Virus record (IMG/VR): IMGVR_UViG_3300005739_000025
Source: a virus
Lineage: Duplodnaviria > Caudoviricetes
DNA: 64,000 nucleotides
Direction: 5' to 3' (one strand)
Part shown: one piece after another, positions 529-21,212 of the stretch
How positions within the stretch are numbered: the stretch's first letter is position 1
Layout: every line of letters starts with the position of its first letter
Notes under the pieces: model-generated
The model's input: only the letters and a program-made list of their open reading frames with translations
The model's database searches: none
What the model was told of the DNA's origin: nothing
Position numbers and translations under genes: made by a program

Positions 529-529
529 T

Positions 530-4316: not shown

Positions 4317-4466
4317 CGTGTGTCTAGAGAGCAGCACGGCTATAGAGGCTAAGGACGGAAATTTGCTCTATATAGAGAACAGGGTCTTAAACTTGGGTTC
4401 CCATGCTTCCGCGCGGGTGCAAATTTTTCGTGCTAAAATCAGCTATATGGAACTTAGACCGGAGTA

Positions 4467-4907
4467 TTATCTATCCAATACATCTACTATATCACCAAAG
4501 AGTTCTTTTGATTGTGGCTTTAAGGTTTCAGAGAAGTCTTCTTCCTCTTTATAGCCTATACCTGTATCGGTAAAGGCACCTTTAAGTAATTCTAGTAACG
4601 TCTTTTTACTAGATATATGAGCTATTCTCATTGTTTTTTTATGCCTATTATATGGAGCTTCATATGTCTTTATATGCTTATCTATATTAGCCCAATTACC
4701 AGGTCTATCTTCTGGTTTCATTGTTTTAAATATATTGACCCATTTAATAGGCATCTTCGTTACAGGAAACATCTTTATTAGCGGATCTTTACCTCTAAGA
4801 ACTGAATGATCATACTTTATAAACAGTATCCATAGTCTTTTAACTTTATTGGCTAATACTTCATCATATGTCTTTCCTATATTGGTTAGGTCTCTTTTAA
4901 AGTACAT
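4467..4907 (-). CDS. Hypothetical protein with C-terminal KP..K..FGDI tag
   Basis: Ends LKPQSKELFGDIVDVLDR*; TAAATA 7 nt before ATG. Confidence 0.85.
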   Translation of the reverse strand: MYFKRDLTNIGKTYDEVLANKVKRLWILFIKYDHSVLRGKDPLIKMFPVTKMPIKWVNIFKTMKPEDRPGNWANIDKHIKTYEAPYNRHKKTMRIAHISSKKTLLELLKGAFTDTGIGYKEEEDFSETLKPQSKELFGDIVDVLDR

Positions 4908-4914
4908 TCTTATA

Positions 4915-4999
4915 TATTTACATTTTTCGGCAACGACCCTTCGGTTTATATATAAGGGAAAAAATTTTTGTGCAAAATTTTCGTTCTAAAATCAGCCAT
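4915..4999 (-). repeat. Copy of repeated late-promoter intergenic cassette
   Basis: 4915-4955 matches 6365-6405 at 40/41 nt (tatttacatttttcggcaacgaccct[t/a]cggtttatatataa); similarity continues to about 4999/6448. Confidence 0.85.
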
Positions 5000-5048
5000 T
5001 AGGTTTTATTATAATTTTTAATTGCTTTTTGTTGATTAAATATTATTA

Positions 5049-5468
5049 ATGGTTGATTGTAATGTTGATAATATATTGGTATCAGGAGCTCAGGTTGGGA
5101 GGGTAAATGGAACATATTCAAATGTCGGACTATTAAGTGGTTTTTCATTCTTTACAAAAGATAATGCTACTCAATACTTCTTTATAAGAATTTCATTAAC
5201 TTCATTAAGATGGGAGATATATGCAACTCCTCTCTTTAGCCCATCTGCACCTCAATCAGTACTTTATTATAGCTCTCAGAGCTTTGATTCAATAGCAAAT
5301 ATCCCTCCATGTCCCTCTGACCCCACTATTGTTTGGTCAGGCCCTTATAACCCAGTACCTACTGTAAGTCAGGTGTCTAAAGTTCAGATGAGAGATTTTA
5401 AATTTGCTACAGCAACAGAAGCTGGGTCAGCTCGCTTTAGACGTCTAGTTGCTTTAGGTTACGTTTAA
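5049..5468 (+). CDS. Late hypothetical protein, possibly virion-associated
   Basis: TAAATA 6 nt before ATG; beta-rich Ser/Thr/aromatic composition. Confidence 0.75.
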   Translation: MVDCNVDNILVSGAQVGRVNGTYSNVGLLSGFSFFTKDNATQYFFIRISLTSLRWEIYATPLFSPSAPQSVLYYSSQSFDSIANIPPCPSDPTIVWSGPYNPVPTVSQVSKVQMRDFKFATATEAGSARFRRLVALGYV

Positions 5469-5848
5469 TCTTTTGGTATCCACTCCGAGGCCATCTTCTT
5501 GTGCTCCTCACCGTCCTCACGCTGGGATAGCTCTTCATCTCTACTAGCTATATCTTTATTATATCCCTTTACTATCTTCCAGGCATCTTCTCTTGACTGA
5601 AACTTACCTTCACTATCTATAAATCCATCTTGGAACTTCTTCTTTTCGTACATTTTATAGAATTTTTCAGCAGCGACATCTACGTGTACGTTATTAATAG
5701 CAGCCAGACGCTTAATGATTCTATCATGGACGTTGGCGTGCATATCACCTTTCCTCCCGGCTATTACCTTTCCGGACGGCAATTTTACAGCAGGTGCCAC
5801 TATCTTTAAGTTCTCCAGTAACAGATTTACTATAGAATCAAACTTCAT
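5465..5848 (-). CDS. Conserved phage hypothetical protein with internal-protein-like leader
   Basis: Leader MKFDSIVNLLLE; body motif IVAPAVK...H...QDGFIDSEGKFQSREDA resembles a common phage family. Confidence 0.8.
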   Translation of the reverse strand: MKFDSIVNLLLENLKIVAPAVKLPSGKVIAGRKGDMHANVHDRIIKRLAAINNVHVDVAAEKFYKMYEKKKFQDGFIDSEGKFQSREDAWKIVKGYNKDIASRDEELSQREDGEEHKKMASEWIPKD

Positions 5849-5850
5849 TA

Positions 5851-6359
5851 CTAACCTCTTCTGTTCTTTATATACATAAAGATACGCTCTACTATATCGC
5901 CAGATACAGTCGGACCTAGTTTTTGTTTTACTTCTGGTGTTTCAACTCTCTGGCGAATCCTCTCCATTAACTCGTTATCATCGGTTATGTTATAGAGGTC
6001 TTCAAAGTAATAATCTAATAGTGTATTAGGTGAAAATTGTTCTTTAACCGGCATTGCCTTACGGACAGGTACCTTTTGACCCATTCTCTCCTTATTAGCT
6101 AATTCTCTGGCCTGATCAACTAAGTTAACTATCTTCTTAAAGTCTACACCCATTTGTAAGAACTTTTGATTTAAACTATCCATTTTACCAGATAATAAAT
6201 CCGCATACATACCTGGTGTGTCTTTTTTATAAGATCTAACAACAGACGAGGGTCTTTGGTTATGTTATGGGTTAATTGCTTTAAACCTAACTGGTTAACA
6301 GTCATCATGTCCTGGGCGACGTTTTCTAATAACTTCTTTACTGTCCTATCGAAATTCAT
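5851..6359 (-). CDS. Hypothetical protein split by a -1 frameshift at A-AAA-AAG (62-aa short form, about 169-aa fusion)
   Basis: Track ORFs 6171-6383 and 5851-6210 overlap; heptamer AAAAAAG at 6228-6222 in frame; true start MNFDRTVKKLLE at 6359, 5 nt after TAAATA. Confidence 0.65.
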
Positions 6360-6364
6360 ATTAT

Positions 6365-6472
6365 TATTTACATTTTTCGGCAACGACCCTACGGTTTATA
6401 TATAACGAAAAAATTTTTGCTCGATTTTTTTGTTACAAAACTAGCCATAAGGAACTTAGACCCGGGTATTAT
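6365..6472 (-). repeat. Most complete copy of the repeated intergenic cassette
   Basis: Shares 41-nt block with 4915-4955, ggaacttagacc..gtattat with 4449-4470, and partial similarity with 7126-7152. Confidence 0.85.
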
Positions 6473-7125
6473 GGTATAGCTTCGAATTTACCCTTTATAC
6501 CCAAACCACCACCGGATATTAAACTATTCTTCATATCTGGTGGTACTTCAGTATTAAGAAACTGCATTAATGAGGCAACACCAGCTGCCCCAGGTCCGGT
6601 TATTCTTGGAGGCCTCATTTTTATCTTCCCAGTCTCAAACGCTTTTTGTAATTTATTATATATTTGTTGAAACTTATTAAAATCTCTTTCAGTCTTAAAC
6701 CCCCAATCACCTGTTTTAGGATCTCTTACAATTCTCTGAATAGTCTTTATATCTGTTGATGGGGCGTCAGCAGGTAGTACTTTATAATTTCTATTAGCAA
6801 AAGAATCTTTACTAGAAGCTATGGCCTGTTCAGTAGGTTCTTTTTTAAATAACCACTTATACATTCTATAAGCTGGATCTTCCAACTTATCTCTATCAGC
6901 TCTCAATACATACCCCAATTTTTCACCAAGCTTCTTATCTCTAACGTTCATAGGAAAGTACTGACTTTTAGGTTCTGGTTTATCTACAAAATAGGAATCA
7001 CCACCATAACCAGTAGATCTTACCTTACCAGTTTTCAATATATTACGCACTTCTTCTGAGCCAGTAGAAACACGAGACCCTAAATTTTGTTCTAGTAATC
7101 TGTTTACTAGTCTATCAAAATTCAT
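6469..7125 (-). CDS. Hypothetical protein with internal-protein-like leader
   Basis: Start moved to MNFDRLVNRLLE (7125), 5 nt after TAAATA. Confidence 0.8.
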   Translation of the reverse strand: MNFDRLVNRLLEQNLGSRVSTGSEEVRNILKTGKVRSTGYGGDSYFVDKPEPKSQYFPMNVRDKKLGEKLGYVLRADRDKLEDPAYRMYKWLFKKEPTEQAIASSKDSFANRNYKVLPADAPSTDIKTIQRIVRDPKTGDWGFKTERDFNKFQQIYNKLQKAFETGKIKMRPPRITGPGAAGVASLMQFLNTEVPPDMKNSLISGGGLGIKGKFEAIP

Positions 7126-7161
7126 ATTATTATTTACTATTTGCGGCATAGAACCTTCGGT

Positions 7162-8754
7162 TTAAAAATATTCCTGTAATACTTCTTTAAAATAATTTTT
7201 ATCCGATTCACCCAAGGTATCAAATATATCACCAAAGTGTTTTTTAGTTTCCGGTTTTAATGGCAATTCATCAGGAATAAATTCATATACACCTGGTTGG
7301 GTTTGAAATTCTATATAACTTTTTTGTATCTTTCTTAATTGTTTTTCCGATCCAGTAAACATGCTGTTATTAAAATCCCCCTTCCATTGATTGTATACTC
7401 TAACACCTCTATACTGGTTTGACCAGGAAGAACTAATAGGAAACTGTAATGCCTCTTTATAAAGTTTTAATCTTTTTCCTCTTAAGTCACTAAGTGGCTG
7501 CAGCCAATATTTTACCTGCATTACAGAATCATCATCGTCATTATCAGTATATGTAAACGACATTACCCAAAGAGGCTCTTTTCTTTCCGTACCTTCTTTT
7601 AAAGAAGACAAAATATCGCTAAAGTGTTCTTTGGTTTTTGGCTTAAGGTCTAGCTCTTCTTTCATTCTAGTACCATATATATAATTCTTATAGTCTAAAA
7701 ATTCTTTGTTAACCTTATCCTTTGGACCTATAAACGCTATTACCGTGGAGTACTTTCCAATATAGTTTCCAAGTCGTACATCTATATCTTTATCATCTTC
7801 ATAGAGACCGTGTTTGTAATTAACTTTATGATTGACTAGATTTTCTACTATCTCTTTATCCTTATCATTTAACCCTTCTAGACGCATATGTTTATAATCA
7901 GCATAAGCTACCTCCGTACCTCTTGGTTTATAGATCTTAATCAAAAATATAAACTTTTCTTTTTGCTGTCTACTCTCCTGCAACGCCGTAAAGATATCAC
8001 CAAAATGTTTTTTAGTTTCTGGTTTAACAGGTAAATCTTCTTCTAAACTTTTAAATGTAATTTTATAAGTCTTTATTAAATCCTTAACATCTGATAAAGA
8101 ATTAATAATGAAAGCTAGCCTGTATCTCACCTTACCACTATTATAGTGCTGTAATTCATAAGCCTTCATACCTGGAGTTGTTTTATATTGTTTCATCATC
8201 TTAAGTAACTTTTTTTCATCATCTGTCATCTCACTTATTTTTTTATAACTGTAAAGAGCTCTTTCTTCTGAGTAATACGCTTTTGGGTTCTCCCTCAACA
8301 CTCTTAGAAAGAATATATATTTGTCTCTATTTTTAGATTCATCTAAATTTGTAAGTATATCTTCAAAAGCTTCTCGAGATTTAGGTCTCATAGTTTTTTT
8401 AGCATATTCATTTTTAAGTTTCTTTATTATTTCTTCTCTATGTACATCCCACCAACGGTAAGATGCTTTATATGATGATTCATAGTCGCCTAGGTATTTG
8501 CTTACCACTAGATCTTTAAAAGAATAACCCGGTGTGTCCATATACTCTACAATTTCAATTACAGCATACTGCTCTCTTAAACTCTTATACCAACCTTCTT
8601 GTGGATCTTTATTTTCTAGTCTTACAGTGTATATAATTTCTCTATTATCTTTATCTATTTTTATATCTTGTACTGTTATTTTTACTGGTAAATCACTATA
8701 GAATATATTCTGAAATGATTCGGCTATGCTGTATAAATCTCTTTTACGGTTCAT
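7162..8754 (-). CDS. Four-module putative polyprotein, each module ending in the KPETKKHFGDI tag plus LxE
   Basis: Tags at 8356-8388, 7993-8025, 7612-7644, 7225-7257, followed by LDES, LQES, LKEG, LGES. Confidence 0.85.
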   Translation of the reverse strand: MNRKRDLYSIAESFQNIFYSDLPVKITVQDIKIDKDNREIIYTVRLENKDPQEGWYKSLREQYAVIEIVEYMDTPGYSFKDLVVSKYLGDYESSYKASYRWWDVHREEIIKKLKNEYAKKTMRPKSREAFEDILTNLDESKNRDKYIFFLRVLRENPKAYYSEERALYSYKKISEMTDDEKKLLKMMKQYKTTPGMKAYELQHYNSGKVRYRLAFIINSLSDVKDLIKTYKITFKSLEEDLPVKPETKKHFGDIFTALQESRQQKEKFIFLIKIYKPRGTEVAYADYKHMRLEGLNDKDKEIVENLVNHKVNYKHGLYEDDKDIDVRLGNYIGKYSTVIAFIGPKDKVNKEFLDYKNYIYGTRMKEELDLKPKTKEHFSDILSSLKEGTERKEPLWVMSFTYTDNDDDDSVMQVKYWLQPLSDLRGKRLKLYKEALQFPISSSWSNQYRGVRVYNQWKGDFNNSMFTGSEKQLRKIQKSYIEFQTQPGVYEFIPDELPLKPETKKHFGDIFDTLGESDKNYFKEVLQEYF

Positions 8755-8755
8755 A

Positions 8756-9949
8756 TTAACAATGATAATTTAAGTACCTTTGAGCAGCCTTAGCTGTATT
8801 ATTACCTTTATTCTTTTGTTTTGATTTAATTCCTCTAGCTTTAGAACAAGACATCTTACCTTTTACTTGTCGTTTTAGAATACCAGGTCTCACCGGATCG
8901 TGTATAGATTTTTCTGATAAACAACTATCCATTATATTATCAAATATATCACCAAAGTGTTTTTCTGTTTCTGGTTTAAAATCTAGCTCTGGTTCGAATT
9001 TTCCTCTACCTGACCCAAAAGTAAGTATATTATTATCTAAAACTATTCTTAAATTGTCCTTCCCACCAATAAATGCATAATGCTTTCTTAATACAGGGTA
9101 AAATTTAGCTCCTGTGTAATGAGATGTATATTCTCTCTCATTAAATGTACCTCTTATTTTATTATTGTCTACATAAAATGTCATATCATTTAAACGTTCT
9201 TTATCCCTTTCTGTTAAGTCCTTTAATGGTTTTATTTTATAGTAATGTTTAGAATCCTTTGAAGCTTCATTTATGTTCATGAATAGAATATAGGGTTCTT
9301 GACCTTCCGGTATTTTAATTTCATCCATTAAATCGTTTATTGCTTCAACACTTTCGTTTAAACCGACTATTATATCACCGAAATGCTTTTGAGTCTCCGG
9401 CTTCATTGACTTTTTAATTTCATATGCATTAAGGGTCTTATTGTTAACCTTATCTAAAAATTTACCCAACTCCATCAAATCATTATCATTACTACTATCA
9501 TACGGTTTACCATACATTTTTCTACTACGTTTTAACTCTCTTATACCAGATTTAATATCGGTACTAATATCCTGACTTTGAGCAGTTGTTAGGTGAGTTA
9601 GTCCAGAATGTATCATTTGACCATGGGTGCCCTTACCCTTCAATTCGGGTTCATAAAGATATATATCTGTTTCTACTTCGTCTTCATTCATTGCCCAATC
9701 ATATATTGTTCTTATAACTTTATATTTTTTCTTTGAAGTTCTATCTTCAACATCATAATCAAATACTGCTTCACCATCTTCATTATAATATTTTTGTAAT
9801 GTAGAAATATAAAATCTACCATTGTCAACACTCTCGTTAAGACCACCCATTACACCATCAAAGTGTTTTTTTGTTTTTGGTCTAGCAGCTAAAACTTTTT
9901 TATCTTGTAAATTTTCCAATAAATTGCTAATTGTTTTATAGAATCCCAC
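8756..9949 (-). CDS. Multi-module putative polyprotein with three tags and a basic Cys/His C-terminal domain
   Basis: GTG 5 nt after TAAATA; tags at 9851-9883, 9371-9403, 8945-8977; C-terminus SIHDPVRPGILKRQ...SCSKA...AAQRYLNYHC. Confidence 0.85.
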   Translation of the reverse strand: MGFYKTISNLLENLQDKKVLAARPKTKKHFDGVMGGLNESVDNGRFYISTLQKYYNEDGEAVFDYDVEDRTSKKKYKVIRTIYDWAMNEDEVETDIYLYEPELKGKGTHGQMIHSGLTHLTTAQSQDISTDIKSGIRELKRSRKMYGKPYDSSNDNDLMELGKFLDKVNNKTLNAYEIKKSMKPETQKHFGDIIVGLNESVEAINDLMDEIKIPEGQEPYILFMNINEASKDSKHYYKIKPLKDLTERDKERLNDMTFYVDNNKIRGTFNEREYTSHYTGAKFYPVLRKHYAFIGGKDNLRIVLDNNILTFGSGRGKFEPELDFKPETEKHFGDIFDNIMDSCLSEKSIHDPVRPGILKRQVKGKMSCSKARGIKSKQKNKGNNTAKAAQRYLNYHC

Positions 9950-10003
9950 AATTTTATTTAAGATTTAAAGTATATTTTTAGCTACTATTCGTTATAATAA
10001 ATT

Positions 10004-10714: not shown

Positions 10715-10745
10715 CGTGATTAACAGCAGAATAAATAATTATACA

Positions 10746-10949
10746 GTGAAAGTAAATGACTCGTCTTTCTATAAAGAGTTCTTAGCAATGAAAGAAGAGA
10801 TTTTAAAACACAAATGGTACGAGTCTGAAAGAGTAGGCTATGATATAGGATTTTCTAGAGCGTTAATTGACTGGACTATAAAATTTAAATCTACCTTTTT
10901 AAAACAAAGAAAGAAAAAAATTAAATCGTATATTTCATACCCAAATTAG
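10746..10949 (+). CDS. Small DUF4032-like protein
   Basis: Start moved to GTG 8 nt after TAAATA; EEILKHKWYESERVGYDIGFSRALIDW resembles the DUF4032 signature (recalled, not searched). Confidence 0.65.
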   Translation: MKVNDSSFYKEFLAMKEEILKHKWYESERVGYDIGFSRALIDWTIKFKSTFLKQRKKKIKSYISYPN

Positions 10950-11292
10950 AGGGTTGAGTTTGAGGAGCTGTAGGAGCGACTCTACCTGTAGGGGCTGTTA
11001 ATTTAGCTAGTAACACTGTTATATTTTCTATAGCTTTCATCATATTGTTTAGTTTTTGATCTAATGAGTTTATCTGATTAGTGAGATTTTGTAAGTTCGG
11101 TGCACCACCTGTTGATGTGCTTTGAGTATTGCTCATAGCTGTGGGAGCGCTAAAACTATTAGCATTTGGTGTAGATGACGTAGGAACTGTAGGCTGAAAA
11201 CTGTTTGGATTCAAAGCCATAGGAGGAGTTGCCTCTTTAACTAAACTTTTAGTATAGTTTTCAAAAATATTATTGAAATCTTCTTTTTTCAT
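10921..11292 (-). CDS. Low-complexity P/T/S protein with coiled coil and leader
   Basis: MKKEDFNNIFENYTKSLVKEA leader; LTNQINSLDQKLNNMMKAIENI heptads. Confidence 0.8.
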   Translation of the reverse strand: MKKEDFNNIFENYTKSLVKEATPPMALNPNSFQPTVPTSSTPNANSFSAPTAMSNTQSTSTGGAPNLQNLTNQINSLDQKLNNMMKAIENITVLLAKLTAPTGRVAPTAPQTQPSNLGMKYTI

Positions 11293-11570
11293 TACCAGTT
11301 TTTACAAGAAAAATATTTTGCAGTTCCAGGCTTTGCTGATGAACATTTGTGACGCGCTCTAAAAGATTTGCGACGTTTTGGATTTGATTTTTTAATTCTT
11401 CTTTTTGGATCACCATAATGTACGCGTTTTAACTTACCACCAACTCGAGCACATCTCATATATTTTTTATCTGTTCTCGTTGATGATTGCTGACCGGTAA
11501 CTTTAGTACATCTGCTACCTTTTTTTGCTTCTTCTAAAATTTGATTAACTAAATTATCGAAATTAAGCAC
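11292..11570 (-). CDS. Small basic conserved phage protein (GDP...RRKSFRARHxC...W family)
   Basis: Start moved to GTG 11570 (MLNFDNLVNQILEEA), overlapping the upstream stop; motif VHYGDP...RRKSFRARHKC...YFSCKNW common in aquatic T4-like phages. Confidence 0.8.
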   Translation of the reverse strand: MLNFDNLVNQILEEAKKGSRCTKVTGQQSSTRTDKKYMRCARVGGKLKRVHYGDPKRRIKKSNPKRRKSFRARHKCSSAKPGTAKYFSCKNW

Positions 11571-11781
11571 TTCTATATTCCCCTTCGATATCATGAGCTA
11601 TTTGCATTAACCTATCACCATCCCCTCTTCTTGCTTTCATAGAAGATATTCTAGTAGCTATAGCTGCAATTTCAGAAGCTAAATTGATCATTTTATTTTT
11701 ATGCTCTGGCGGTTCACCAATATCAGATTCATAAACTTTTGAATACGCCTCAGAAATATTATATAACTCATTCTTCTTCAT
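11563..11781 (-). CDS. Small protein with leader
   Basis: TATAAATA 5 nt before ATG; MKKNELYNISEAYSKVYES. Confidence 0.8.
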   Translation of the reverse strand: MKKNELYNISEAYSKVYESDIGEPPEHKNKMINLASEIAAIATRISSMKARRGDGDRLMQIAHDIEGEYRSA

Positions 11782-11789
11782 AAATGTAT

Positions 11790-12743
11790 TTATAAAGAAC
11801 CTATAATGTCTCCGAAATGTTCTTTTGTTTTAGGCTTCATATTTTTAGTGCTCAGTATCTTTAATCTTTCTTTTTGTGACATTAAAGCAATTTTTAAAAC
11901 CTCAAATGCATCTTTATCAACATCTAATGTATTATTTGTCAAACCATCATACAACTCATACCCACCTATATATGTTAAAGATTTACCCCCTTGTTTATGT
12001 TTTTTTAATGGAATAAGATCCGTATCCCAACGTTTAGTTTTTTTATCTAATATTTTTCTCTTTAATTCTAATCCTAAAAACATAGGTGTTTTTTCATCTA
12101 CAGAATAAGAAAAGTGCTGTAATATTTCATAAAACTTTACACCTTTAGAAGTATTATACCTCACCGTTATTTCATCAATTATTTTGTTATATCTATAACC
12201 AGGATTCTTTGAATATATTCTATTAAAGTCTATAATTTCGGGCTCATTTGTTTGCCTTGACTCTGAAACCGCGCCTAATATATCACCAAAGTGTTTTTTA
12301 GTCTCCGGCTTCATACCCATTGCCTCAATACTCCTCTTTTTCATATCAAAATTACTAACTTGATCTAAAATTTCTTCAATTATTCTAAAACCTTTTTTAT
12401 TTTTAAAATATGGATGCTTATGAATAGCGTGAGCCGCTACTAAATTCATTGGCAGCTCTTTCATTAAATTACGATCTATTGAATGAAGGATCATACCTTC
12501 TTCGCTATTATATCTGCAGTGAAAAATTGCAGTAGATTGTAATATACCAGGCTTATCTTCCTTCAATTTTTCAAAAATCTGAAAAACATTAAACCTTTCT
12601 TTTGTAATAGTATCTTCAAACCTAAAAAAATCGTTTATAAAATGATTAGAAATATCTCTTCTAAATTCTATAAGCTCTACATTTACAGGCTCTGATTTGC
12701 CTCTACTATACGCCTCAAATATTAACTTAGATGTAATATCCAC
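11790..12743 (-). CDS. Two-module tagged protein
   Basis: Leader MDITSKLIFEAY; tags at 12279-12311 (then AVSES) and 11805-11837 (then GSL*). Confidence 0.85.
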   Translation of the reverse strand: MDITSKLIFEAYSRGKSEPVNVELIEFRRDISNHFINDFFRFEDTITKERFNVFQIFEKLKEDKPGILQSTAIFHCRYNSEEGMILHSIDRNLMKELPMNLVAAHAIHKHPYFKNKKGFRIIEEILDQVSNFDMKKRSIEAMGMKPETKKHFGDILGAVSESRQTNEPEIIDFNRIYSKNPGYRYNKIIDEITVRYNTSKGVKFYEILQHFSYSVDEKTPMFLGLELKRKILDKKTKRWDTDLIPLKKHKQGGKSLTYIGGYELYDGLTNNTLDVDKDAFEVLKIALMSQKERLKILSTKNMKPKTKEHFGDIIGSL

Positions 12744-12755
12744 ACTTATATTTAA

Positions 12756-13298
12756 TTATAAAGAAGATAATATGTCACCAAAATGCTTTTGTGTTTCTGG
12801 CTTCATGTTTCTTAATCTTAAGTAGTTGTTTAGATTTTTTAACTCATCTTTAGAATAAACACCCTCGGTCACCGATAAATCTTCATAATCATTTAATACA
12901 TCTGCCATTACGTGCTTTATAAGATTTTTCATATCATCTAACATAGGTCCATGTTTATGTCTGCTTTTAGCATTATGAACAAGCTCTAATACAAAATAGT
13001 AAACATATCTAGGAAAATTTAATTTATCTGTTAAACCATACTTACTACGTAAATTTATTAAAATATTTTTTCTATGCATTCTAAACGGTCCAAGCTCAAA
13101 TAACCCTCTTACTAAAAACGGTAACAAAGGTATACCAACAATATTATTAAACATATCATAGAGTTTATTCTCTAGCCACGATTGTCCTCCTAATTCCCTC
13201 AATTGCCACAAAGTTTCAGTATTTTTCTTTATAGCAATATTAAAAAGAAAAGCAGCAACTTTATCAGCGTATTCGTTCTCGCTCGGTGTTAATGTCAT
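12756..13298 (-). CDS. Helical protein with C-terminal tag
   Basis: Ends MKPETQKHFGDILSSL*; ATGA overlap with upstream gene. Confidence 0.85.
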   Translation of the reverse strand: MTLTPSENEYADKVAAFLFNIAIKKNTETLWQLRELGGQSWLENKLYDMFNNIVGIPLLPFLVRGLFELGPFRMHRKNILINLRSKYGLTDKLNFPRYVYYFVLELVHNAKSRHKHGPMLDDMKNLIKHVMADVLNDYEDLSVTEGVYSKDELKNLNNYLRLRNMKPETQKHFGDILSSL

Positions 13299-14389
13299 AA
13301 CTCTCTTAAAATATCTCCAAAATGTTCTTTTGTTTTCTTTTTCATTCTAGTATCTGAAAAATAATTAGAATCCATAAGGTTTAATAGCAATGCATTTTTT
13401 AAAAACACCTCTGCTATCTTGTAGTTAGTATCATAGGAGTGAGGAAAATAACAATAATATATGTACGATGTATTAACGTGGGATTTTCTATCTTGCATTA
13501 ATATTTCTAAATATTTTTTAGCATTTGGACCAGCGTTATATGATGTTACACCTGTATCCAATAAACCATTTACCTCATTTACATCTATTTCTGGATTATT
13601 ATACACACAATCATATAAAACATGTTTTTCTATGTAAGGTTGTAAAAACTTAGTGAGTATAAAATCATCCGGATCTTCACTTACATATATATTTTCTTTT
13701 ATTACCAAATATGGCATTATATTAAGTTTTACTAGTGAATATAGTTCGTGCTGATTTCTAATTTTAGAGAGCGCAGTGCCTCTATATTTGTAACCTGTTA
13801 AATCATTGGCTAAATTAGCTACTATTTCGCAAATTCTTTTTTCAAAGTCTACCAACTTTAAACTTTTTATCTTACCTGCAGATGTATGTTGATAGCTTTC
13901 TAAAATGCTTTTATATTGTTCATTAAACCCCAAACCTTTTATGATATCACCAAAATGTTTTTTTGTCTCAGGTTTAAACGCTAGTCCTTCTTTTTTATAC
14001 GCCAGCAACCAATTTGCTTTTTTTTCTACCTCCGACATGTAGGTTCCTTGTCTATAAAAATCAGGTACTTTCTTTTGCATTTTATCAAAGTCTTTATCAT
14101 CTCTATCTGTAAAAACATAACCTTTAAAAAGAGTGCTATCTGCTTTTAATGCAACAATAATTTGAGAATGGTTTGCAAAATCTAACTTAGTTCTTTTTCT
14201 ACTATTTTTTGTATTGACAAATACAAATGCAAATCTTTCAAAATTATTATTCTCTAAATAATTTATAATCTTTTGTAGGTTATCTTTGTTATAGTTTATA
14301 AAAAGATTGCTATTAATTCCTGGAAACGCTTTTCTTACTATATTTCCATTATAAATCTTACCAACCTTTAATTGATTAAAAACTTTCAT
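13295..14389 (-). CDS. Two-module tagged protein
   Basis: Tags at 13943-13975 (then GFNEQYKSILES) and 13310-13342 (then REL*). Confidence 0.85.
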   Translation of the reverse strand: MKVFNQLKVGKIYNGNIVRKAFPGINSNLFINYNKDNLQKIINYLENNNFERFAFVFVNTKNSRKRTKLDFANHSQIIVALKADSTLFKGYVFTDRDDKDFDKMQKKVPDFYRQGTYMSEVEKKANWLLAYKKEGLAFKPETKKHFGDIIKGLGFNEQYKSILESYQHTSAGKIKSLKLVDFEKRICEIVANLANDLTGYKYRGTALSKIRNQHELYSLVKLNIMPYLVIKENIYVSEDPDDFILTKFLQPYIEKHVLYDCVYNNPEIDVNEVNGLLDTGVTSYNAGPNAKKYLEILMQDRKSHVNTSYIYYCYFPHSYDTNYKIAEVFLKNALLLNLMDSNYFSDTRMKKKTKEHFGDILREL

Positions 14390-14988
14390 TTATCTAACGC
14401 TCCAAATATATCTCCAAAATGTTTTTTAGTCTCAGGTTTTAAACTTTTATTGAATACGTATTTTTCCCAATAGCTATGTCCCTCTTCAGCGTATTTTTTA
14501 GCTAGTGCATGAAACATAATAGCTAATACTCTAAATCCCTTATCATATAATTCACCATCTTCTAATTCTTCAAATAAACGTTTAAACTCTATTCGCCTCC
14601 CAGCACCTCCAACATACTTTAATAAAGATTTATTAAGAATTTTTTCTATCTTGTCTTTATCTTCATCTTTTAATATACTTTCGCGGGGCTGCATTAAATC
14701 GTAAAAAAACCATCCAATATGCTTTTGCGTCCTTTCATCCACATTAGGATCAAACTTAAATAACCTTCTAAAATTTGCTGTATTCTGATCTTCTATATCA
14801 GTATTATAATACATGTTTGATTTTGCTCTTTGTCTTTCAGTTTTAAATCTATTAGATTTTGGTAGAGCTTTATACTGATTTCTTTTTCTTAACAACATGT
14901 TTATAGTGTAAGTAAGAAGCTTATGTTCTTCTGGAGTTACATCTACCAGTATTTCCTCTAAGAAAAGAATATACTTTTTGAAGTTCAT
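14386..14988 (-). CDS. Protein with leader and C-terminal tag
   Basis: MNFKKYILFLEE; ends LKPETKKHFGDIFGALDK*; TAAATA 6 nt before ATG. Confidence 0.85.
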   Translation of the reverse strand: MNFKKYILFLEEILVDVTPEEHKLLTYTINMLLRKRNQYKALPKSNRFKTERQRAKSNMYYNTDIEDQNTANFRRLFKFDPNVDERTQKHIGWFFYDLMQPRESILKDEDKDKIEKILNKSLLKYVGGAGRRIEFKRLFEELEDGELYDKGFRVLAIMFHALAKKYAEEGHSYWEKYVFNKSLKPETKKHFGDIFGALDK

Positions 14989-15000
14989 CTAAATTATTTA

Positions 15001-15678
15001 TTAACTGTTGATACCTGCGAGTATATCCCCGAAATGCTTTTGAGTCTCTGGCTTCATAGTTCTTTTAATTCTATATTTTTTTAACGATTTATAAAAACTA
15101 TTTTGGCTCATAACTTCTACCCAACCATCTCTATCATAAAGAGCAATACTTCCAATAAAAGCGTACATACCAGTTCTAATTATTTCTTTAATTTTTTCTA
15201 TATCATTATATACACCTTTAAAGTTCTCTCTTCCCCACCCATCTAATCCCCCAATCATCATAGTGATTGATACTGAGTATTCACTTTTTTTCCAAATAGT
15301 ATTCGCTTTTTTCTTGTCAAATAATCTATCTATTAATGCTTTTACGGAAGGTTCTTTATCTAATTCTAAAAAAGTACCTCCAACATAGTCCCAGTCATCA
15401 TCTCTTCTTGGTTTATGATCTATTAAATTACATAAAAATTTGTATATATTTTTTATAATGTAATCTTCATCCGGATAGTAGATCGCTTCATCAGTAGCAA
15501 TACCACCAGGCCTATTAAAAGGTTGTTTTGCTAATTTAAAATAATATTTTTGTAAAAATTGTGAAATAAGAGTTATGCAATCTTCTTCTCTTTGTGTTAA
15601 AGGTATTGGCCTGTACCCGTCTACCTCTGGAAAACGTGTACCTTCGATTATCGTTCGAACTTGCTCGTAAAAGTCCAT
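15001..15678 (-). CDS. Protein with leader and C-terminal tag
   Basis: Start moved to MDFYEQVRTIIEG (15678); ends MKPETQKHFGDILAGINS*. Confidence 0.85.
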   Translation of the reverse strand: MDFYEQVRTIIEGTRFPEVDGYRPIPLTQREEDCITLISQFLQKYYFKLAKQPFNRPGGIATDEAIYYPDEDYIIKNIYKFLCNLIDHKPRRDDDWDYVGGTFLELDKEPSVKALIDRLFDKKKANTIWKKSEYSVSITMMIGGLDGWGRENFKGVYNDIEKIKEIIRTGMYAFIGSIALYDRDGWVEVMSQNSFYKSLKKYRIKRTMKPETQKHFGDILAGINS

Positions 15679-15682
15679 CTCA

Positions 15683-15925
15683 TTATCTTGCAGATGGTAT
15701 CCAGCTTGCATCCTCAGGATTTTCTGGAAGTTTTAATGTTTTAGCCTGACCTTGATCAGATCTATAACCCTCAATTAAGTCTAAAACTTTTTTTAAACCT
15801 TCAGCTATTTGATCTAAAACATCACCTTTTACTGCCTCTGCATCTTCATCTGGCATTTGTTCTTGTTGAGAACATTGAGATTCTACTACAGTTTTGTATG
15901 CTTTATATATGCTGCTATTATTCAT
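15683..15925 (-). CDS. Small protein with leader
   Basis: MNNSSIYKAYKTVVES; tightly packed in operon. Confidence 0.75.
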   Translation of the reverse strand: MNNSSIYKAYKTVVESQCSQQEQMPDEDAEAVKGDVLDQIAEGLKKVLDLIEGYRSDQGQAKTLKLPENPEDASWIPSAR

Positions 15926-15926
15926 A

Positions 15927-16412
15927 TTATCTTGTTAATAAGTTTCTTAAGTTATACATTATAGACCAAACAGATGGTCTACTGATTACTCTTTTTATTT
16001 CCTCTAAAAGAGAACGGTCTTTAATGTGAGTTGTTGCGTAACTTTTTATAAACTCTTTTAGTTGATTAATATCTATATTTTTATATCTATCTAATCCAAA
16101 GTTCTCTAAACCTAAAAAGAAAGCGTCTTCTACTTCGTCAATTAAATCTTTTATATAAGGAAGATTCGATTGGAACATAAAGTATTTTGATTTTCTTTCT
16201 ACAGGTTTTTGAACTAGCTTTGTATTTTCTACATTACTATTTTCTGCAAAGTTTTCCAAAAGTTTATTAAACTCTGAATAGTTTCTTTCAACACCCAAAA
16301 GTTTTTTATACTTTGAATTCTCTAAAATTTGTCTTTGTTTTTCAGTTAACTTATGTTTACCGTAGTAATATTTTTCAGCTAACAATTTTAATTTTTTGTC
16401 TCTTGAGTTCAT
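15927..16412 (-). CDS. Hypothetical protein
   Basis: Start moved to MNSRDKKLKLLAE (16412), 1 nt after the AAA gene stop. Confidence 0.75.
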   Translation of the reverse strand: MNSRDKKLKLLAEKYYYGKHKLTEKQRQILENSKYKKLLGVERNYSEFNKLLENFAENSNVENTKLVQKPVERKSKYFMFQSNLPYIKDLIDEVEDAFFLGLENFGLDRYKNIDINQLKEFIKSYATTHIKDRSLLEEIKRVISRPSVWSIMYNLRNLLTR

Positions 16413-16413
16413 A

Positions 16414-18009
16414 TTATTTTGTTGCGCAGCCTCCACCTGCAATAATTTTTTTAATTCTTGGAAGAACTTCTTCTAAGAATTCTTTTTTGACCGCTGGATC
16501 AAACTCTTCATAAACTACAAAGTCTAACATGAATGTTAGAAGATCTCTAGGCATATCTTTATTTAAAGTCTCAAACATAACACAAACTGCTTCTGGAGAT
16601 AAATTGTTCATTATTTTAGCTAAACCTATCATTACCTCTCTATCATCAGGTGATATTTTATCCCCAGCCCCTTTAGCATTTTGTGATGCAATTCTAAGTT
16701 TGTTTGCTACAAACACAATTAAAGCTAACATTTTATCTAAGGGTTGATCTTTAAGATACTTTTTAGGATCTTTTAAAATCTTACCCATATCAAAAGATTG
16801 AATGTGTTTTAAGAAAGTATCAAATCTATTTGCCCACGGTACACCAGCGCGCTGAGCAGCAAATAATCTAATGTTTTCCATCGCGTTAAATGATCTACCA
16901 GATGCTTTTTGTTCATCATACTTCTTTCTGAAATATTCTATACCCTTAGAAATCTTTTCTAACACTCTAGGAGTCACAAATGGATTTTCGCCGTTCGGTT
17001 CTTTGTATAGGGCGTCTTCAGGTACAGCTTTTGTGAACGCTACAATAGCATCATCTATACCGGCATTAACAGCATAGTCTCTCCATTCATCTGGATTTAC
17101 TACAAGAACACCAGCTCCAAAGCGGTTAATGTTAGCAGGAGAAATTGGCTCGTTTCCAAAAAGTTCACCCATGTTACATGCAGCTACTATTCCGACGTCT
17201 TTGGCAATTCTCCTGTCACCCAAAACTCTATCAAGTACAATTTTAAACGCAGCGTCTTTTACTTCTTTAGATCCTTGATTGAATTCATCCAAAAATAAAA
17301 ATCCATCTGCACCTTCTCTTGTTAAAAGATAAGCCCATGAAGGTGGACTATAAACTGTGTAAGGTTTATCAGATTTTACAGGTACACCCACGACGTCTGA
17401 TCTATCCATTTCTGCTAATCTTAAATCCACATAAACAAAATAGGAAGTGGGATCTTGAATAAGAGCATCTCTTTCTTCATCACTTAGATCAAAAAATTCT
17501 ACATATTCTTTGTTCTTTTCATTAGCAATTCTTTTTGATACTTGTTTAAAAATACTACTCTTACCCACACCTGGATCACCAATTAATAGGAAAGACTCTT
17601 TCATATCATAAGCAGCTTCTGCTTGTTCTTCTACTTGTCTTATAGACATTTCTGGAAATTCTGTCTCTTTCCAGCTTATAAGATCTGAATCACCGAATCT
17701 AGGAATATCTACTATTGATGTTGGATCTTGTTTTATTTGAGAAGCAACCTGCGCTTCTTTGTTAGCAGCTGAAATTAATGGCTGCGCTTGTTTTACAATA
17801 TCATCGGAGCTTATTTCAGGTTCTTGAGCTTGTTGAGCTATTTCACCAGCCTGACCTTTTAGTTGGGAAGCTTTTTGCTGAACACTTTTAGGGTTAACTT
17901 GTTTACCCTTAACCATTTGCATTGGTTTTGAAAAAGGAACCTCACCACCTACCGCTTCATTTAAAACTTTTTTGTATAGATTGAATATATTCTTGGAATT
18001 AGAGTCCAT
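16414..18009 (-). CDS. MoxR-type AAA+ ATPase
   Basis: Walker A GDPGVGKS, Walker B FLFLDEFN, FKIVLDRVLG, PANINRF, TPRVLEK; adjacent to a vWA gene. Confidence 0.85.
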   Translation of the reverse strand: MDSNSKNIFNLYKKVLNEAVGGEVPFSKPMQMVKGKQVNPKSVQQKASQLKGQAGEIAQQAQEPEISSDDIVKQAQPLISAANKEAQVASQIKQDPTSIVDIPRFGDSDLISWKETEFPEMSIRQVEEQAEAAYDMKESFLLIGDPGVGKSSIFKQVSKRIANEKNKEYVEFFDLSDEERDALIQDPTSYFVYVDLRLAEMDRSDVVGVPVKSDKPYTVYSPPSWAYLLTREGADGFLFLDEFNQGSKEVKDAAFKIVLDRVLGDRRIAKDVGIVAACNMGELFGNEPISPANINRFGAGVLVVNPDEWRDYAVNAGIDDAIVAFTKAVPEDALYKEPNGENPFVTPRVLEKISKGIEYFRKKYDEQKASGRSFNAMENIRLFAAQRAGVPWANRFDTFLKHIQSFDMGKILKDPKKYLKDQPLDKMLALIVFVANKLRIASQNAKGAGDKISPDDREVMIGLAKIMNNLSPEAVCVMFETLNKDMPRDLLTFMLDFVVYEEFDPAVKKEFLEEVLPRIKKIIAGGGCATK

Positions 18010-18017
18010 AAAGTTAT

Positions 18018-19523
18018 TTATGAGTGAGATACGTCAATAAAATAGGTAGGACCGAATTTTTTAAGAATCTCGTCTGTACCATCCATTGTGATAAAAAATA
18101 ATTTTTTAGGGGCTTGGGGTAGAATAGGATTATCCTCTACATATCCGTCAGTAAAAACTAATAAACCGCCTTTAATTGGTTTACCTTGATAATACTTGTC
18201 TAAAAATTGTTTTACGCTTGAAAGAGTTGTTCCACCCCCATGAGCTTTCATATTCATTAAACCTTCAGTTATCTTTGACATACTCATTTTAGATGTATCT
18301 ATTTCAAAATGATCAGCAACAGTAGCGTCCCAAAGTAATACTAAAATCTTTACCTTATTATTTCTAAAAACTTTTAAAATATCTATAATTCCGCCTAAAA
18401 AAGTTTTTAATACAGGGTCTGTTATAGACCCACTAGTGTCGATAGCTACTACAGCTTGCAATTCATTTTTAACAGTATACCTTCTTGGGTGAAAGTAAGT
18501 TCCACCACCCAATCTTCTACTCTCTCTTGACCAATCTGTTTTAACTACAGACGAACCAACTATAAAATTCTTTAACAATTGTTTCCAATTAACTTTGGCA
18601 CTTAGTAGTCTTTTATCAAAAGATCTAGGCATACCCGGGTCAGTGCCTCTTCTTTTTGCTTCATCTTGCGCTTGTTGTGCTGCCTCTTGAACTTTACTCT
18701 TTAGTGCGTTATCTCTTTGCTGATCCGACATACCAGATGTATCGTTTTTTTGGTAAACCGGATCATTAGAAGGTACTTTTTCACCCTTTATTTGTTCAGC
18801 CTCTTGAGGTGTTAAATGTTTGTCCAGCTCACCCATCTGGTCTATTACTTGTTGAATACACTGTTTGACCTGTTCAGGGGGACCACTTTTAATTAATATA
18901 TCATATAATTGTTCTGCGTCCATGTCAGTTATATCGACCTTTTTCATTTGAATTCCGGTAACATTTAAAGAAGGAGATTTGCCTTTAGTGTTTATTTTTG
19001 CTTTTGATGCATCTGGTATCTCAATTATCCATCTACCATTTTTATTTTGAGGTATAAGACCCATCTTAGGTAAGGAAATACCCATATCTACTAAATCTCT
19101 ATTCATTATGTAATCGGTAGCATAATTCCAAATCGTCATATCTCTTCCTCTTTGTCTTGTGAACGTCAAAGTTGCTATATGCATTACTTCGTGAGCTAAA
19201 ACACCCATTACTTCATCATCAGATAACTCGTTTAAAACGAAATTTGCGTTAATATAAATGTTTGCAGAGTTATCCACAGCCATAGTGTTAATCCCGTAAC
19301 GAGCTGCTTCTTCTGGTTTTATAACAACAGTTTTAAGCTTTTGAAGAGTTAAACCAAAAAAAGGATAAACTTTATATAATCTAAACTTGGCTCTTACAAG
19401 TTTATCTTCAAAAGTCTTAAATACCTTAGGGTCCATAGGAGCTTGATCTGTTGGACCTGCTTGTTCTAGTAGTATTCTTCTATAAGATTTAAATATAGAA
19501 TCTCCATCAAAGTTATAGCGCAT
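18018..19523 (-). CDS. Metallopeptidase-vWA domain protein (DUF2201-like)
   Basis: TMAVD, LAHEVMH (HExxH), IWNYATDYIMN, vWA MIDAS VAIDTSGS, GGGT, VFTDGY; start moved to MRYNFDGD (19523), removing the overlap with the + strand gene. Confidence 0.85.
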   Translation of the reverse strand: MRYNFDGDSIFKSYRRILLEQAGPTDQAPMDPKVFKTFEDKLVRAKFRLYKVYPFFGLTLQKLKTVVIKPEEAARYGINTMAVDNSANIYINANFVLNELSDDEVMGVLAHEVMHIATLTFTRQRGRDMTIWNYATDYIMNRDLVDMGISLPKMGLIPQNKNGRWIIEIPDASKAKINTKGKSPSLNVTGIQMKKVDITDMDAEQLYDILIKSGPPEQVKQCIQQVIDQMGELDKHLTPQEAEQIKGEKVPSNDPVYQKNDTSGMSDQQRDNALKSKVQEAAQQAQDEAKRRGTDPGMPRSFDKRLLSAKVNWKQLLKNFIVGSSVVKTDWSRESRRLGGGTYFHPRRYTVKNELQAVVAIDTSGSITDPVLKTFLGGIIDILKVFRNNKVKILVLLWDATVADHFEIDTSKMSMSKITEGLMNMKAHGGGTTLSSVKQFLDKYYQGKPIKGGLLVFTDGYVEDNPILPQAPKKLFFITMDGTDEILKKFGPTYFIDVSHS

Positions 19524-19550
19524 AAGTAAACCATAAGTATTTAGATATTC

Positions 19551-21212
19551 ATGCATAGTTTTAAAGATTTTATTAAATTGTATGAAGCGACTTTGCAAGA
19601 GCTTAGAAGTAAAGGCTTTGTAGAGCCGGGCCCTAGAGCTAGACATCAAATAGGTGACTATGTTATTATTAAGTCTGACGGTCGTTGGCCAATGTATCAA
19701 TCGGCTAGATCTTCACCATATATAGGACAATATGGTAAAGTGGTAGGCTATAAACAGGCAACAGGTTCGTATGTTAAATATGCCGTAGAGTTTCCAGATA
19801 AAAACGTTGAAGCGTTTCATAGTCATTACGTTGCAGGCTCATTTAAAGATGAAACTTCTGCAAAAAAATATGCCTTAGATCCAAAAAAGAAAAGAAATCC
19901 TACGGGTATTAATTTCAATCCGAAAATTAAACCTGAAGACTTAAAGGGTTATGTAGACGGTGTAAATAGATTAGTTGCTAATGCTAAATTTGAAGAACTA
20001 TTAAATAAAATATTTTCACAACAACCTTTTGAACTTAACAGATTAGAAAAACCTATATCCTTTAATAGTGATGACGGTAAGTATGTAGCAACTATTTTGA
20101 TGTCTAGACCCTTAAAGGGTATGTTAAAGCCAGGTAATAAAATAAGATCCTACGACAGTGTTAATTTAAGAATAACTAGCAATAGCTTTAGAAAATATAT
20201 AAGCGAAAATATTTGTATATATAGACTTAATAATACAGTAAATGGTAAACTGGTAAATGAAACCGGGGCAACTAGACTCTTTAATGTGACGTATAGTCAT
20301 AGTCCTTACAATGTAGTCAAGCCACACTTAAAGTTAGAACACTTACTTTACGAAGATAGAACAATTGATTTTACAGATAAAAATACCCTACTTAAATCAA
20401 TTTATAATAGCGGTCTAGGCACACTTTCAACTAAGGTTTTTAATTTGTACCCTAATGCTACAAAAGATAATCAAATATTTGAAGAAAATTACTCTAAACC
20501 TTTTATAGAAACTATGAACTTTTTAAATGGTAATTTTTCCTTAGAAGAAATTTTTAACAGCTTATATCAAGTAACAGAGAGGGGTGGGAAAAAATTTATT
20601 GGTGTACATAGAGTAAATGCAAACGCTGATACTTTAAGATTTTTCTTAAACTATGAATTCGACCCCACTAAAAAGCGTTCCGGTAGAGATCAAACATTAG
20701 TTATAATTGAAGATAATCCAAACAGAATAAAACAGATACCCCTGGGCATGCCTAAAGTAGTGATTCAACCTAAAGATGCATATTACAGAAAAATCTATCC
20801 AAAATTATTAAATCTTAACATGATTCCTGATACAGTTAAGGATCTTACATTATATAATCTCGAAATTAAATCCCTACAAGGTCTTCCAGAACAAATGGAT
20901 GCCTTACACATAGACCACAGCTTTATGGAATCTTTAAAAGGTCTTACAACTAAAGTTATAAAAGGTGAATTTAGAGTAAGAACAGATTTAAAGACTCTTC
21001 AAGGCGGTGAACACACAGTCTGTGGTAAGCTGGATATATATGATAATAGAAGCTTAAAATCTTTAAAAGGAATTCCCAAAGCTAAAGAATATACACTACC
21101 AAATCAATTTACGGTTAAAGACGCGCAAAAAGAAGTTCAACAAAGAGAGTTTATAGGAAATTTAAAGCCAAAAACTAAAGAGACATTTGCAGATATTTTT
21201 GGTTCTTTATAA
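19551..21212 (+). CDS. Large protein with leader, leucine-rich-like repeats and C-terminal tag
   Basis: MHSFKDFIKLYEA; repeats IKSLQGLP/MESLKGLT/LKTLQGGE/LKSLKGIP; ends LKPKTKETFADIFGSL*. Confidence 0.85.
   Translation: MHSFKDFIKLYEATLQELRSKGFVEPGPRARHQIGDYVIIKSDGRWPMYQSARSSPYIGQYGKVVGYKQATGSYVKYAVEFPDKNVEAFHSHYVAGSFKDETSAKKYALDPKKKRNPTGINFNPKIKPEDLKGYVDGVNRLVANAKFEELLNKIFSQQPFELNRLEKPISFNSDDGKYVATILMSRPLKGMLKPGNKIRSYDSVNLRITSNSFRKYISENICIYRLNNTVNGKLVNETGATRLFNVTYSHSPYNVVKPHLKLEHLLYEDRTIDFTDKNTLLKSIYNSGLGTLSTKVFNLYPNATKDNQIFEENYSKPFIETMNFLNGNFSLEEIFNSLYQVTERGGKKFIGVHRVNANADTLRFFLNYEFDPTKKRSGRDQTLVIIEDNPNRIKQIPLGMPKVVIQPKDAYYRKIYPKLLNLNMIPDTVKDLTLYNLEIKSLQGLPEQMDALHIDHSFMESLKGLTTKVIKGEFRVRTDLKTLQGGEHTVCGKLDIYDNRSLKSLKGIPKAKEYTLPNQFTVKDAQKEVQQREFIGNLKPKTKETFADIFGSL

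Follow-up and report, generated by a model that had tools for sequence, protein, structure and literature searches.

The 64,000-nt stretch of viral DNA analysed here (IMG/VR record IMGVR_UViG_3300005739_000025), called the window throughout and setting the limits of all counts of open reading frames (ORFs) and reading frames given below, raises the question of why one short peptide should close a series of phage proteins and recur at the joints of longer ones. The peptide, termed the tag, is 15 residues long ([KR]-P-[EK]-T-x-[KE]-H-F-G-D-I-Φ-x-x-L) and is present in 16 copies distributed over nine genes. The answer to which we give an even chance is that the tagged proteins would be late, head-packaged cargo modules, cut apart by a prohead protease and each keeping a C-terminal docking helix. 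What appears to be new, as judged from the sequences, is a distinct shared C-terminal tag that recurs wherever modules are joined into strings, these strings being interchangeable with single genes; the tag apparently stays on the mature protein.

The source of the window would be an uncultured T4-like jumbo phage of ~244 kb, seen in metagenomes only. The G+C content is 30–35% across most of the window, which encodes phage virion and tail-fibre proteins. A 530-aa tagged protein (7162-8754) maps to a contig of 244,006 bp, and a close relative is a 237,194-bp ENA metagenome scaffold. The phage was treated as T4-like because a 901-aa virion protein (57151-59856) has its best matches only in T4-like cyanomyophages (e.g., S-PM2, S-RSM4, and S-RIM), at ~35% identity.

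A first-pass annotation of this DNA had reported 16 tag copies in nine genes, and a pattern scan confirmed them at the positions given there. The looser 15-residue pattern retrieved exactly these 16 copies (15 on the minus strand, one on the plus strand) and none beyond them in any frame of the 64 kb, while a six-frame scan with the strict core H-[FYWL]-G-[DE]-[ILVF] yielded 11 copies; the consensus can be written as [ML]-K-P-E-T-K-K-H-F-G-D-I-[LFIM]-x-x-L. The seven tags reported near a stop codon indeed lie at the stop or at most 3 residues from it. The tagged genes and their tags (the latter all from the pattern scan) are as follows; several proteins begin with an N-terminal leader or follow a TAAATA motif, both of which are treated further below, and P-numbers (P0013 etc.) denote tagged proteins from relatives that were compared with the window modules.

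4467-4907, minus strand: 146-aa tagged single-module protein, TAAATA 13 nt upstream
4476-4520, minus strand: its variant C-terminal tag KPQSKELFGDIVDVL, followed by DR and the stop
7162-8754, minus strand: four-module protein of 530 aa with four tags, modules 2-4 belonging to the paralogous family A
8344-8388, minus strand: internal tag RPKSREAFEDILTNL of this protein, followed by DES
7981-8025, minus strand: internal tag KPETKKHFGDIFTAL, followed by QES
7600-7644, minus strand: internal tag KPKTKEHFSDILSSL, followed by KEG
7213-7257, minus strand: last tag KPETKKHFGDIFDTL of the 530-aa protein, followed by GES and a 13-aa tail
8756-9949, minus strand: 397-aa protein with three tags, built of leader GFYKTISNLLEN, degenerate tag, module, tag, family-A module, tag and a 56-aa basic Cys-containing tail
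9839-9883, minus strand: its degenerate internal tag RPKTKKHFDGVMGGL, followed by NES
9359-9403, minus strand: internal tag KPETQKHFGDIIVGL, followed by NES
8933-8977, minus strand: internal tag KPETEKHFGDIFDNI, followed by MDSCLSE-K (predicted cut E/K)
11790-12743, minus strand: two-module protein of 317 aa with two tags, GTG start, TAAATA 11 nt upstream
12267-12311, minus strand: its internal tag KPETKKHFGDILGAV, followed by SES
11793-11837, minus strand: its C-terminal tag KPKTKEHFGDIIGSL, followed by the stop
12756-13298, minus strand: 180-aa tagged single-module protein without N-terminal leader
12759-12803, minus strand: its C-terminal tag KPETQKHFGDILSSL, followed by the stop
13295-14389, minus strand: two-module protein of 364 aa with two tags and a full leader, GFNEQYKSILE-S, after the internal one (predicted cut E/S)
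13931-13975, minus strand: its internal tag KPETKKHFGDIIKGL
13298-13342, minus strand: its C-terminal tag KKKTKEHFGDILREL, followed by the stop
14386-14988, minus strand: 200-aa tagged all-alpha protein (from ORF and model), leader MNFKKYILFLEE, TAAATA 12 nt upstream
14395-14439, minus strand: its tag KPETKKHFGDIFGAL, followed by DK and the stop
15001-15711, minus strand: tagged single-module protein, its true start probably the Met at 15678 (MDFYEQVRTIIEG leader); P0019 begins MEFYEQVRIIIEG
15010-15054, minus strand: its tag KPETQKHFGDILAGI, followed by NS and the stop
19551-21212, plus strand: 553-aa tagged protein (from ORF and tag scan) with LRR-like C-terminal half, leader MHSFKDFIKLYE and C-terminal tag; the orthologue P0041 retains the tag
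21165-21209, plus strand: its tag KPKTKETFADIFGSL, followed by the stop

The copies have a mean nucleotide identity of 67% and a median exact run of 8 nt, and 45% of the codon pairs specifying an identical amino acid are synonymous variants; because of this identity and these synonymous differences, the peptide and not the DNA is considered to be under selection, and the tag was rejected as a DNA repeat. The same values stand against the idea that the tag-coding DNA is a recombination joint for module shuffling between phages, its peptide being of little function, to which we attach hardly any credence even though the module order and fusion state of relatives differ exactly at the tags and one pair of tags has a 27-nt exact run in common. 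At the protein level, an alignment of 38 tags (from the window phage and one relative) shows conservation of at least 90% at each of P, T, H, F, D, and I, with T, H, and D being the near-invariant polar residues and F, I, Φ, and L forming a hydrophobic face. When orthologues were compared, the tags were 79% identical versus 64% for the module bodies.

When 1.84 billion representative proteins were searched with a profile of the 38 tags (cut-off E ≤ 0.001), 54 proteins that carry the tag were found, all of them metagenomic and unnamed, with two to five tags in 17 of the 54. The tag array is alike in all four phages whose array loci were compared (the window phage, L001/L008, L011, and L015), and one relative has a second cluster with six tags (L008 13964-16567). 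No relatives of the tag were found in IMG/VR by a pattern scan or a profile-guided scan, and blastn and tblastn searches against 50,697 GenBank phage records gave no match for a tagged protein or for the DNA of the MoxR/VWA genes discussed below. None of the nine tagged proteins reached the cut-off for a Pfam family, no PHROGs match was obtained for 14386-14988 (the only one of the nine scanned there), and Pfam and PHROGs returned no meaningful family for the neighbouring genes. A literature search for the tag strings was likewise without a match, in agreement with the earlier remark that no described phage system with such a C-terminal tag was known.

The proteins that carry the tag differ widely. 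Most families of tag-trimmed modules are mutually dissimilar, while an iterative search united modules 2-4 of 7162-8754 with ~30 others in the paralogous family A (~110 residues). The AlphaFold model of family A (mean predicted local distance difference test score, pLDDT, of 84) has an alpha/beta domain at residues 10-108 (pLDDT > 90) and a separate tag helix (~60); that of 14386-14988 is all-alpha (mean pLDDT 80), with values of 38 for the leader and 57-74 for the tag, whose helix is kinked at G-D. Since a tag helix of low pLDDT is found on two unrelated folds, the tag was considered an appendage lying outside both cores, and it is modelled as a loosely attached, kinked amphipathic terminal helix. 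No structural relatives of either model were found in the PDB (Foldseek), BFVD, VIA-align wide or AFDB clusters (best E 0.04, best Z 4.0), and the ESM Atlas offered only LRR-type leads, for 19551-21212. The claim of the first-pass annotation that the tag sits on diverse proteins thus holds in so far as at least two unrelated folds carry it, and has to be narrowed in so far as a single family of ~110 residues accounts for several modules of the long ORFs. The tag peptide is kept by selection on the C-terminal ends of modules with at least two unrelated folds.

Where the tag stands within a protein follows a rule, which was assessed on 116 non-redundant tags from several phages (a 117th pattern match was a false positive in a non-coding frame). 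C-terminal tags, at most 4 residues from the stop, make up 68 of the 116, and in 42 of them the last Leu is also the final residue of the protein; here a Glu at +2 is not required, the chain stopping at or just past the Leu. The other 48 tags are internal, with Glu at +2 after the last Leu in 40 of them and Ser at +3 in 21 of those 40. In the internal exceptions L/I-x-E comes slightly later, e.g., GFNEQYKSILE-S, MDSCLSE-K or FGAKIE-D (with the cut expected after E). A tag was therefore either C-terminal or, as a rule, followed by x-E, which is the outcome that the first-pass annotation had proposed to check, and its finer observation also proved correct, namely that [LV]-x-E-[SG] directly follows seven of the nine internal tags in the window, with LSE or ILES a few residues later in the other two. 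The prohead protease gp21 of T4 cuts after L/I-x-E (PMC9026906), and the x-E-S behind the internal tags fits such a site. A conserved junction motif and units that also exist singly, both features of a processed polyprotein, are thus found together. Recoding or read-through was considered and rejected, as were 2A-like or self-cleaving peptides, for which a matching motif was absent.

Comparison between phages indicated that the strings and the single genes are two states of the same units. Tag-trimmed modules pair as orthologues across phages while their fusion state differs. For instance, P0013 consists of the 15001 module, a tag, and the 14386 module, which are adjacent separate genes in the window; P0016 has the 15001 module joined to the second module of 13295-14389; and P0017 has the first module of 13295-14389 joined to the 12756 module and retains, after ...LSVKE-S, the Met of the formerly separate downstream gene. 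The fourth module of 7162-8754 is the stand-alone gene P0027 in a relative, and P0042 and P0044 likewise represent internal modules in stand-alone form. A module lying inside a longer protein in one phage can hence be a gene of its own in another, in line with the earlier suggestion that the polyprotein modules mimic stand-alone genes, and such fused and split forms are expected if both give the same products.

At these joints, tag plus L-x-E in the fused form stands where the split gene has an N-terminal leader resembling the capsid targeting sequence (CTS) of T4. The junction of P0013 reads ...KHFGDIITGLNE-SFEIKIDDRLKRFLTY, and the split window gene begins MNFKKYILFLEE-ILVDVTPEEHKLLTY (putative cut sites at the hyphens); MAFFT aligns the HFGDIITGLNE-S of this junction with the leader NFKKYILFLEE of the split 14386 gene. 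Similarly, P0020 starts MEFYSKVKSILNNLKE-SVDNGR, and 8756-9949 of the window has at this place the leader, the degenerate tag and LNE-SVDNGR.

These observations bear on the alternative that no processing takes place. The tag would then be just the C-terminal helix that is best conserved in a rapidly evolving family of small phage proteins, the long ORFs would be ordinary tandem multi-domain proteins that arose by gene fusion, x-E-S would reflect a preference in helix capping or in linkers, and the site of action may be the cell and not the virion. The paralogy of modules 2-4 of 7162-8754 with one another and with many other modules would suit it, as would the frequency of gene fusion and fission in phages and the lack of L-x-E avoidance in the module bodies (see below). 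We nevertheless hold it to be unlikely, as the tag is found on alpha/beta, all-alpha, and LRR-like (553-aa) proteins, most module families are mutually dissimilar once the tag is removed, the Glu at +2 is frequent at internal copies and dispensable at C-termini, and the junction replaces a leader of the cleavable type in orthologues.

Beside the tagged modules, a 56-aa basic Cys-containing tail was seen to move among proteins, each time right after x-E. This basic mini-module of ~50 residues (..S[IV]HD[PA]VRPGILKRQVKGKM[ST]CSKARGIKSKQKNKGNNTAKAAQRY[IL]NYHC) is present on three proteins, at 8759-8926 of the window (minus strand) and at the C-termini of L001 11269-11973 and of P0020, and it may be a released DNA-binding internal peptide. 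The L001 protein (11269-11973) is encoded by a single gene of 234 aa with leader MQFNKTVNMLLEN, body and basic tail. Its counterpart in the window (minus strand) is without the tail and is broken by a frameshift into two ORFs, one at 6171-6359 for residues 1-54 and one at 5851-6210 for residues 52-174; the frameshift at 5851-6359 could be programmed, or could stem from an assembly error or mark a pseudogene.

Indications of where the products would act come from the N-termini and the upstream DNA. Many genes in and around the array have leaders of the form F-x-x-Φ-Φ-x-x-L-x-E, a longer type present on several tagged genes, or of the shorter form M-K-T-F-x-x-F-L-x-E. In T4, the CTS is MKTYQEFIAE. 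This string occurs in PMC8442874, and of its 10 residues positions 4 and 7 serve targeting and positions 8 and 10 processing (PMC9026906). The same spacing (aromatic residues at 4 and 7, I/L at 8, E at 10) is found in MKTFKQFLLE at 27402, in MVTFKSFLKE at 26713, and in MKTFKSFITE of the tagged P0033. A strict leader pattern was matched by 9 of 85 N-termini versus 10 internal matches in 17,297 positions, and of these internal matches six are internal tags with their L-x-E and four are unrelated to tags. The leader is absent from about half of the tagged proteins, and it is also found on untagged genes within and around the array and on a separate group on the plus strand:

5465-7149, minus strand: untagged genes adjoining the array, with leaders MKFDSIVNLLLEN, MNFDRTVKKLLEN and MNFDRLVNRLLEQ
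10921-11781, minus strand: three small untagged genes within the array, encoding 72, 100 (very basic, leader LNFDNLVNQILEE), and 123 aa
25730-29954, plus strand: five genes with T4-CTS-like leaders (including MVTFKSFLKE-A and MKTFKQFLLE-I) and without canonical tag, candidate head-internal proteins

Three leader-bearing proteins of the last group (26713-29954, plus strand) have tag-like ends, ..ILGGISNPTSL, ..GGLDKLKKAITPSL and ..NFLGDVGNTLDKTSRKPRR, each followed by the stop, and these C-termini may be degenerate variants of the second half of the tag. One of the group (26713-27405) has an H-x6-D ... H-I-D pattern that recalls M15-type cell-wall peptidases and is without a Pfam match. Within the window, the best internal match of a position matrix built from leaders is ..ERNYSEFNKLLENFA.., at residue 44 of a conserved 161-aa gene that follows the MoxR gene (15927-16412, minus strand); this site could mark a propeptide of ~55 residues or could reflect a mis-called start.

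Of 84 genes, 16 have the motif TAAATA at a distance of 10-14 nt (mostly 11-12 nt) upstream of their ATG versus 0.35 expected, and these include tagged, leader, MoxR, virion, and tail-fibre genes (sites are found, among others, upstream of 4907, 6359, 9949, 11781, 12743, 14988, 18009, 25730, 26713, 28070, 44335, and 49333), and tagged genes with a GTG start have the same arrangement. By analogy with the TATAAATA motif of T4, TAAATA is presumably a late promoter; the strict TATAAATA motif itself is not enriched in the window (7 found versus 17.6 expected). As a position 11-12 nt before the start leaves scarcely any space for a 5' leader or a Shine-Dalgarno sequence, near-leaderless late mRNAs are suggested.

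The promoters, presumably of a late type, and the CTS-like leaders both suggest the virion and thereby weigh against a role of the tag only after injection or in the infected cell, where it would dock phage effectors to one host hub (a chaperone, protease adaptor, membrane or secretion component), with packaging and cleavage secondary or absent. In favour of such a hub, the mature ends retain the tag, since the stand-alone genes end at the Leu and an L-x-E cut cannot remove it; the near-invariant polar residues suggest a specific receptor; and the modules are many, variable, and shuffled, as in effector arsenals. With no similar motif in the libraries and literature searched, we rate this explanation as improbable.

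Another candidate for recognising the tag is encoded immediately upstream of the array:

16414-18009, minus strand: MoxR-type AAA+ ATPase (from family matches) with leader-like N-terminus ..IFNLYKKVLNE-A, heading the array in four phages
18018-19700, minus strand: HExxH metallopeptidase (DUF2201_N, from Pfam of the orthologue) with VWA domain and an intact DxSxS metal-ion-dependent adhesion site (MIDAS), leader ..IFKSYRRILLE-Q; probable start at 19523

According to this explanation, the main rival of the reading that we prefer, the tag would be recognised by the MoxR ATPase together with the VWA/HExxH metallopeptidase, the MIDAS of the VWA domain binding the invariant Asp of HFGD, and either the zincin would cut the junctions in place of the prohead protease or the ATPase would remodel or unfold the proteins, all of which would be compatible with head packaging. 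The order VWA-peptidase, MoxR, 161-aa gene, 75-80-aa gene and tag array, all on one strand, recurs in four phages (the pair lies at 16414-19700 on the minus strand of the window, and at L001 1-2735, L011 286-3305, and L015 1-2280), the VWA protein has intact HEVMH (zincin) and D-T-S-G-S (MIDAS) motifs, both enzymes have leader-like N-termini, and the near-invariant T, H, and D form a polar face on the tag. On the other hand, the pair is common in phages without tags (605 phage records match the ATPase, with distant N4-like matches only, versus 54 tag proteins), the four phages are syntenic relatives, so that the linkage may be inherited, the second cluster of the relative (L008 13964-16567) and 19551-21212 lie outside the operon, and L-x-E-S is a classic site of the gp21 type; we know of no L-x-E specificity among DUF2201 peptidases. 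When the VWA-peptidase was modelled in complex with the C-terminal 38 residues of 14386-14988, the score was 0.00 in a run without controls, a result that counts neither way. Overall, we see recognition by this pair as distinctly unlikely.

The reading that we prefer, processing of packaged cargo by a prohead protease, explains the findings most simply and would proceed as follows. The array genes would be expressed late, and their products would enter the prohead in the manner of the internal proteins of T4. In the strung forms, a protease of the gp21 family would cut after the L-x-E directly behind each internal tag, so that every released module would end in the same C-terminal tag as the stand-alone proteins. 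The retained tag would be a docking helix for one partner, most probably the prohead core or an inner capsid component, and it may be a C-terminal loading or retention signal on which the leaderless tagged proteins, about half of the total, would depend most. Polyproteins packaged in the head and cut into modules had already been proposed in the first-pass annotation, and that proposal has gained partial support from the x-E rule, the fusion and fission of modules, the leaders together with TAAATA, and the T4-like virion protein.

Several points weigh against this reading. Cleavage and location in the virion are predictions, and no gene for a gp21-family protease was seen in the 64-kb window, which is the part of the genome that the analysis covered. 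Inside the tagged modules L/I-x-E was observed 36 times versus 25.6 expected, and because the site is not depleted in the module bodies this check gave no support for exposure to the protease. The best internal matches of the position matrix, for which 13 N-terminal leaders were used, do not include the tags; a sequence similarity between leader and tag was consequently dropped, and what the two have in common is their hydrophobic pattern and their position. P, T, H, and D are conserved more strictly than a simple amphipathic docking helix would require, and since many tagged proteins also carry a leader, the tag would be redundant if it were a loading signal only.

A bolder form of the argument is that the tag is a C-terminal sorting signal, not described before, of a clade of T4-like jumbo phages, recognised on more than 20 shuffled modules by a single receptor (the prohead core, or MoxR-VWA via the MIDAS and the Asp), with the prohead protease making the cuts in such a way that each unit carries the signal at its end, and the signal controlling loading, retention or ordered exit. 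We regard this as possible, though on balance doubtful.

To our knowledge, the N-terminal CTS of T4 is the only well-understood rule by which arbitrary proteins are loaded into a phage head, and it has already been used for the delivery of foreign proteins. The closest likeness is indeed to the T4 internal proteins (IPI, IPII, IPIII, and Alt, with CTS and gp21), which are variable, unrelated small proteins with a common short terminal peptide; the leader spacing is as in MKTYQEFIAE (here MKTFKQFLLE), L/I-x-E is followed by a small residue, and the promoter motif is presumably of a late type, in a T4-like background. Compared with the CTS, the tag is different, longer, C-terminal, and predicted to stay on the mature protein, and it coexists with N-terminal leaders in up to four copies per ORF (five in relatives). 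T4 Alt and gp21 are processed on the C-terminal side too (PMC9026906), and a polyprotein arrangement with such a tag was not found in the T4 literature searched. Viral polyproteins likewise have several units in one chain and a conserved short motif at each joint; here, in contrast, the virus is a double-stranded DNA phage, the units are also single genes, and each unit would keep the same C-terminal peptide.

A short peptide on unrelated cargo inside an HK97-fold shell is also known from the C-terminal cargo-loading peptides of encapsulins and from the C-terminal coat-binding helix of P22-type scaffolding proteins. These are without sequence relation to the tag and illustrate how it might act, not a family to which it belongs. 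In large phages (phiKZ with gp175, 201phi2-1, SPN3US with gp245), dozens of packed proteins are cut after Glu in a three-residue motif by a protease related to gp21, and what is removed is nearly always an N-terminal propeptide (PMC9026906, PMC10052503). The motif of phiKZ is S/A-x-E, and in SPN3US N-terminal propeptides are removed at 13 of 14 mapped sites, the only C-terminal propeptide being that of the protease itself (PMC10052503). A shared C-terminal tag and strings of modules, as in the arrays described here, have not been reported for these giant phages.

Two other regions of the window differ from their surroundings. Positions 1-4400 have a G+C content of 44% versus ~30% elsewhere, with dense small plus-strand ORFs of 56-121 aa for which no family matches were found, and are probably an early-gene block of differing composition. 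At 31968-42392 (plus strand), ~14 successive ORFs of 180-430 aa have a G+C content of only 26-29%; one of them has weak methyltransferase matches, glycosyltransferase-like genes lie farther on (59900-62255), and the region with the genes beyond it is a large modification or glycosylation block, unusual in a phage.

If the tagged proteins are packaged and cut as set out above, neo-C-termini ending ...H-F-G-D-I-x-x-x-L-x-E are predicted. A second loading signal, C-terminal and retained through maturation, would then reveal the way in which a large protein cargo is organised in big phages, to which genes that give this cargo either singly or as protease-cut strings would add. Such a signal would explain the rapid shuffling of modules at these loci and would provide a new handle for loading cargo into capsids, and the more than 10 module families without detectable relatives would be candidate injected effectors.

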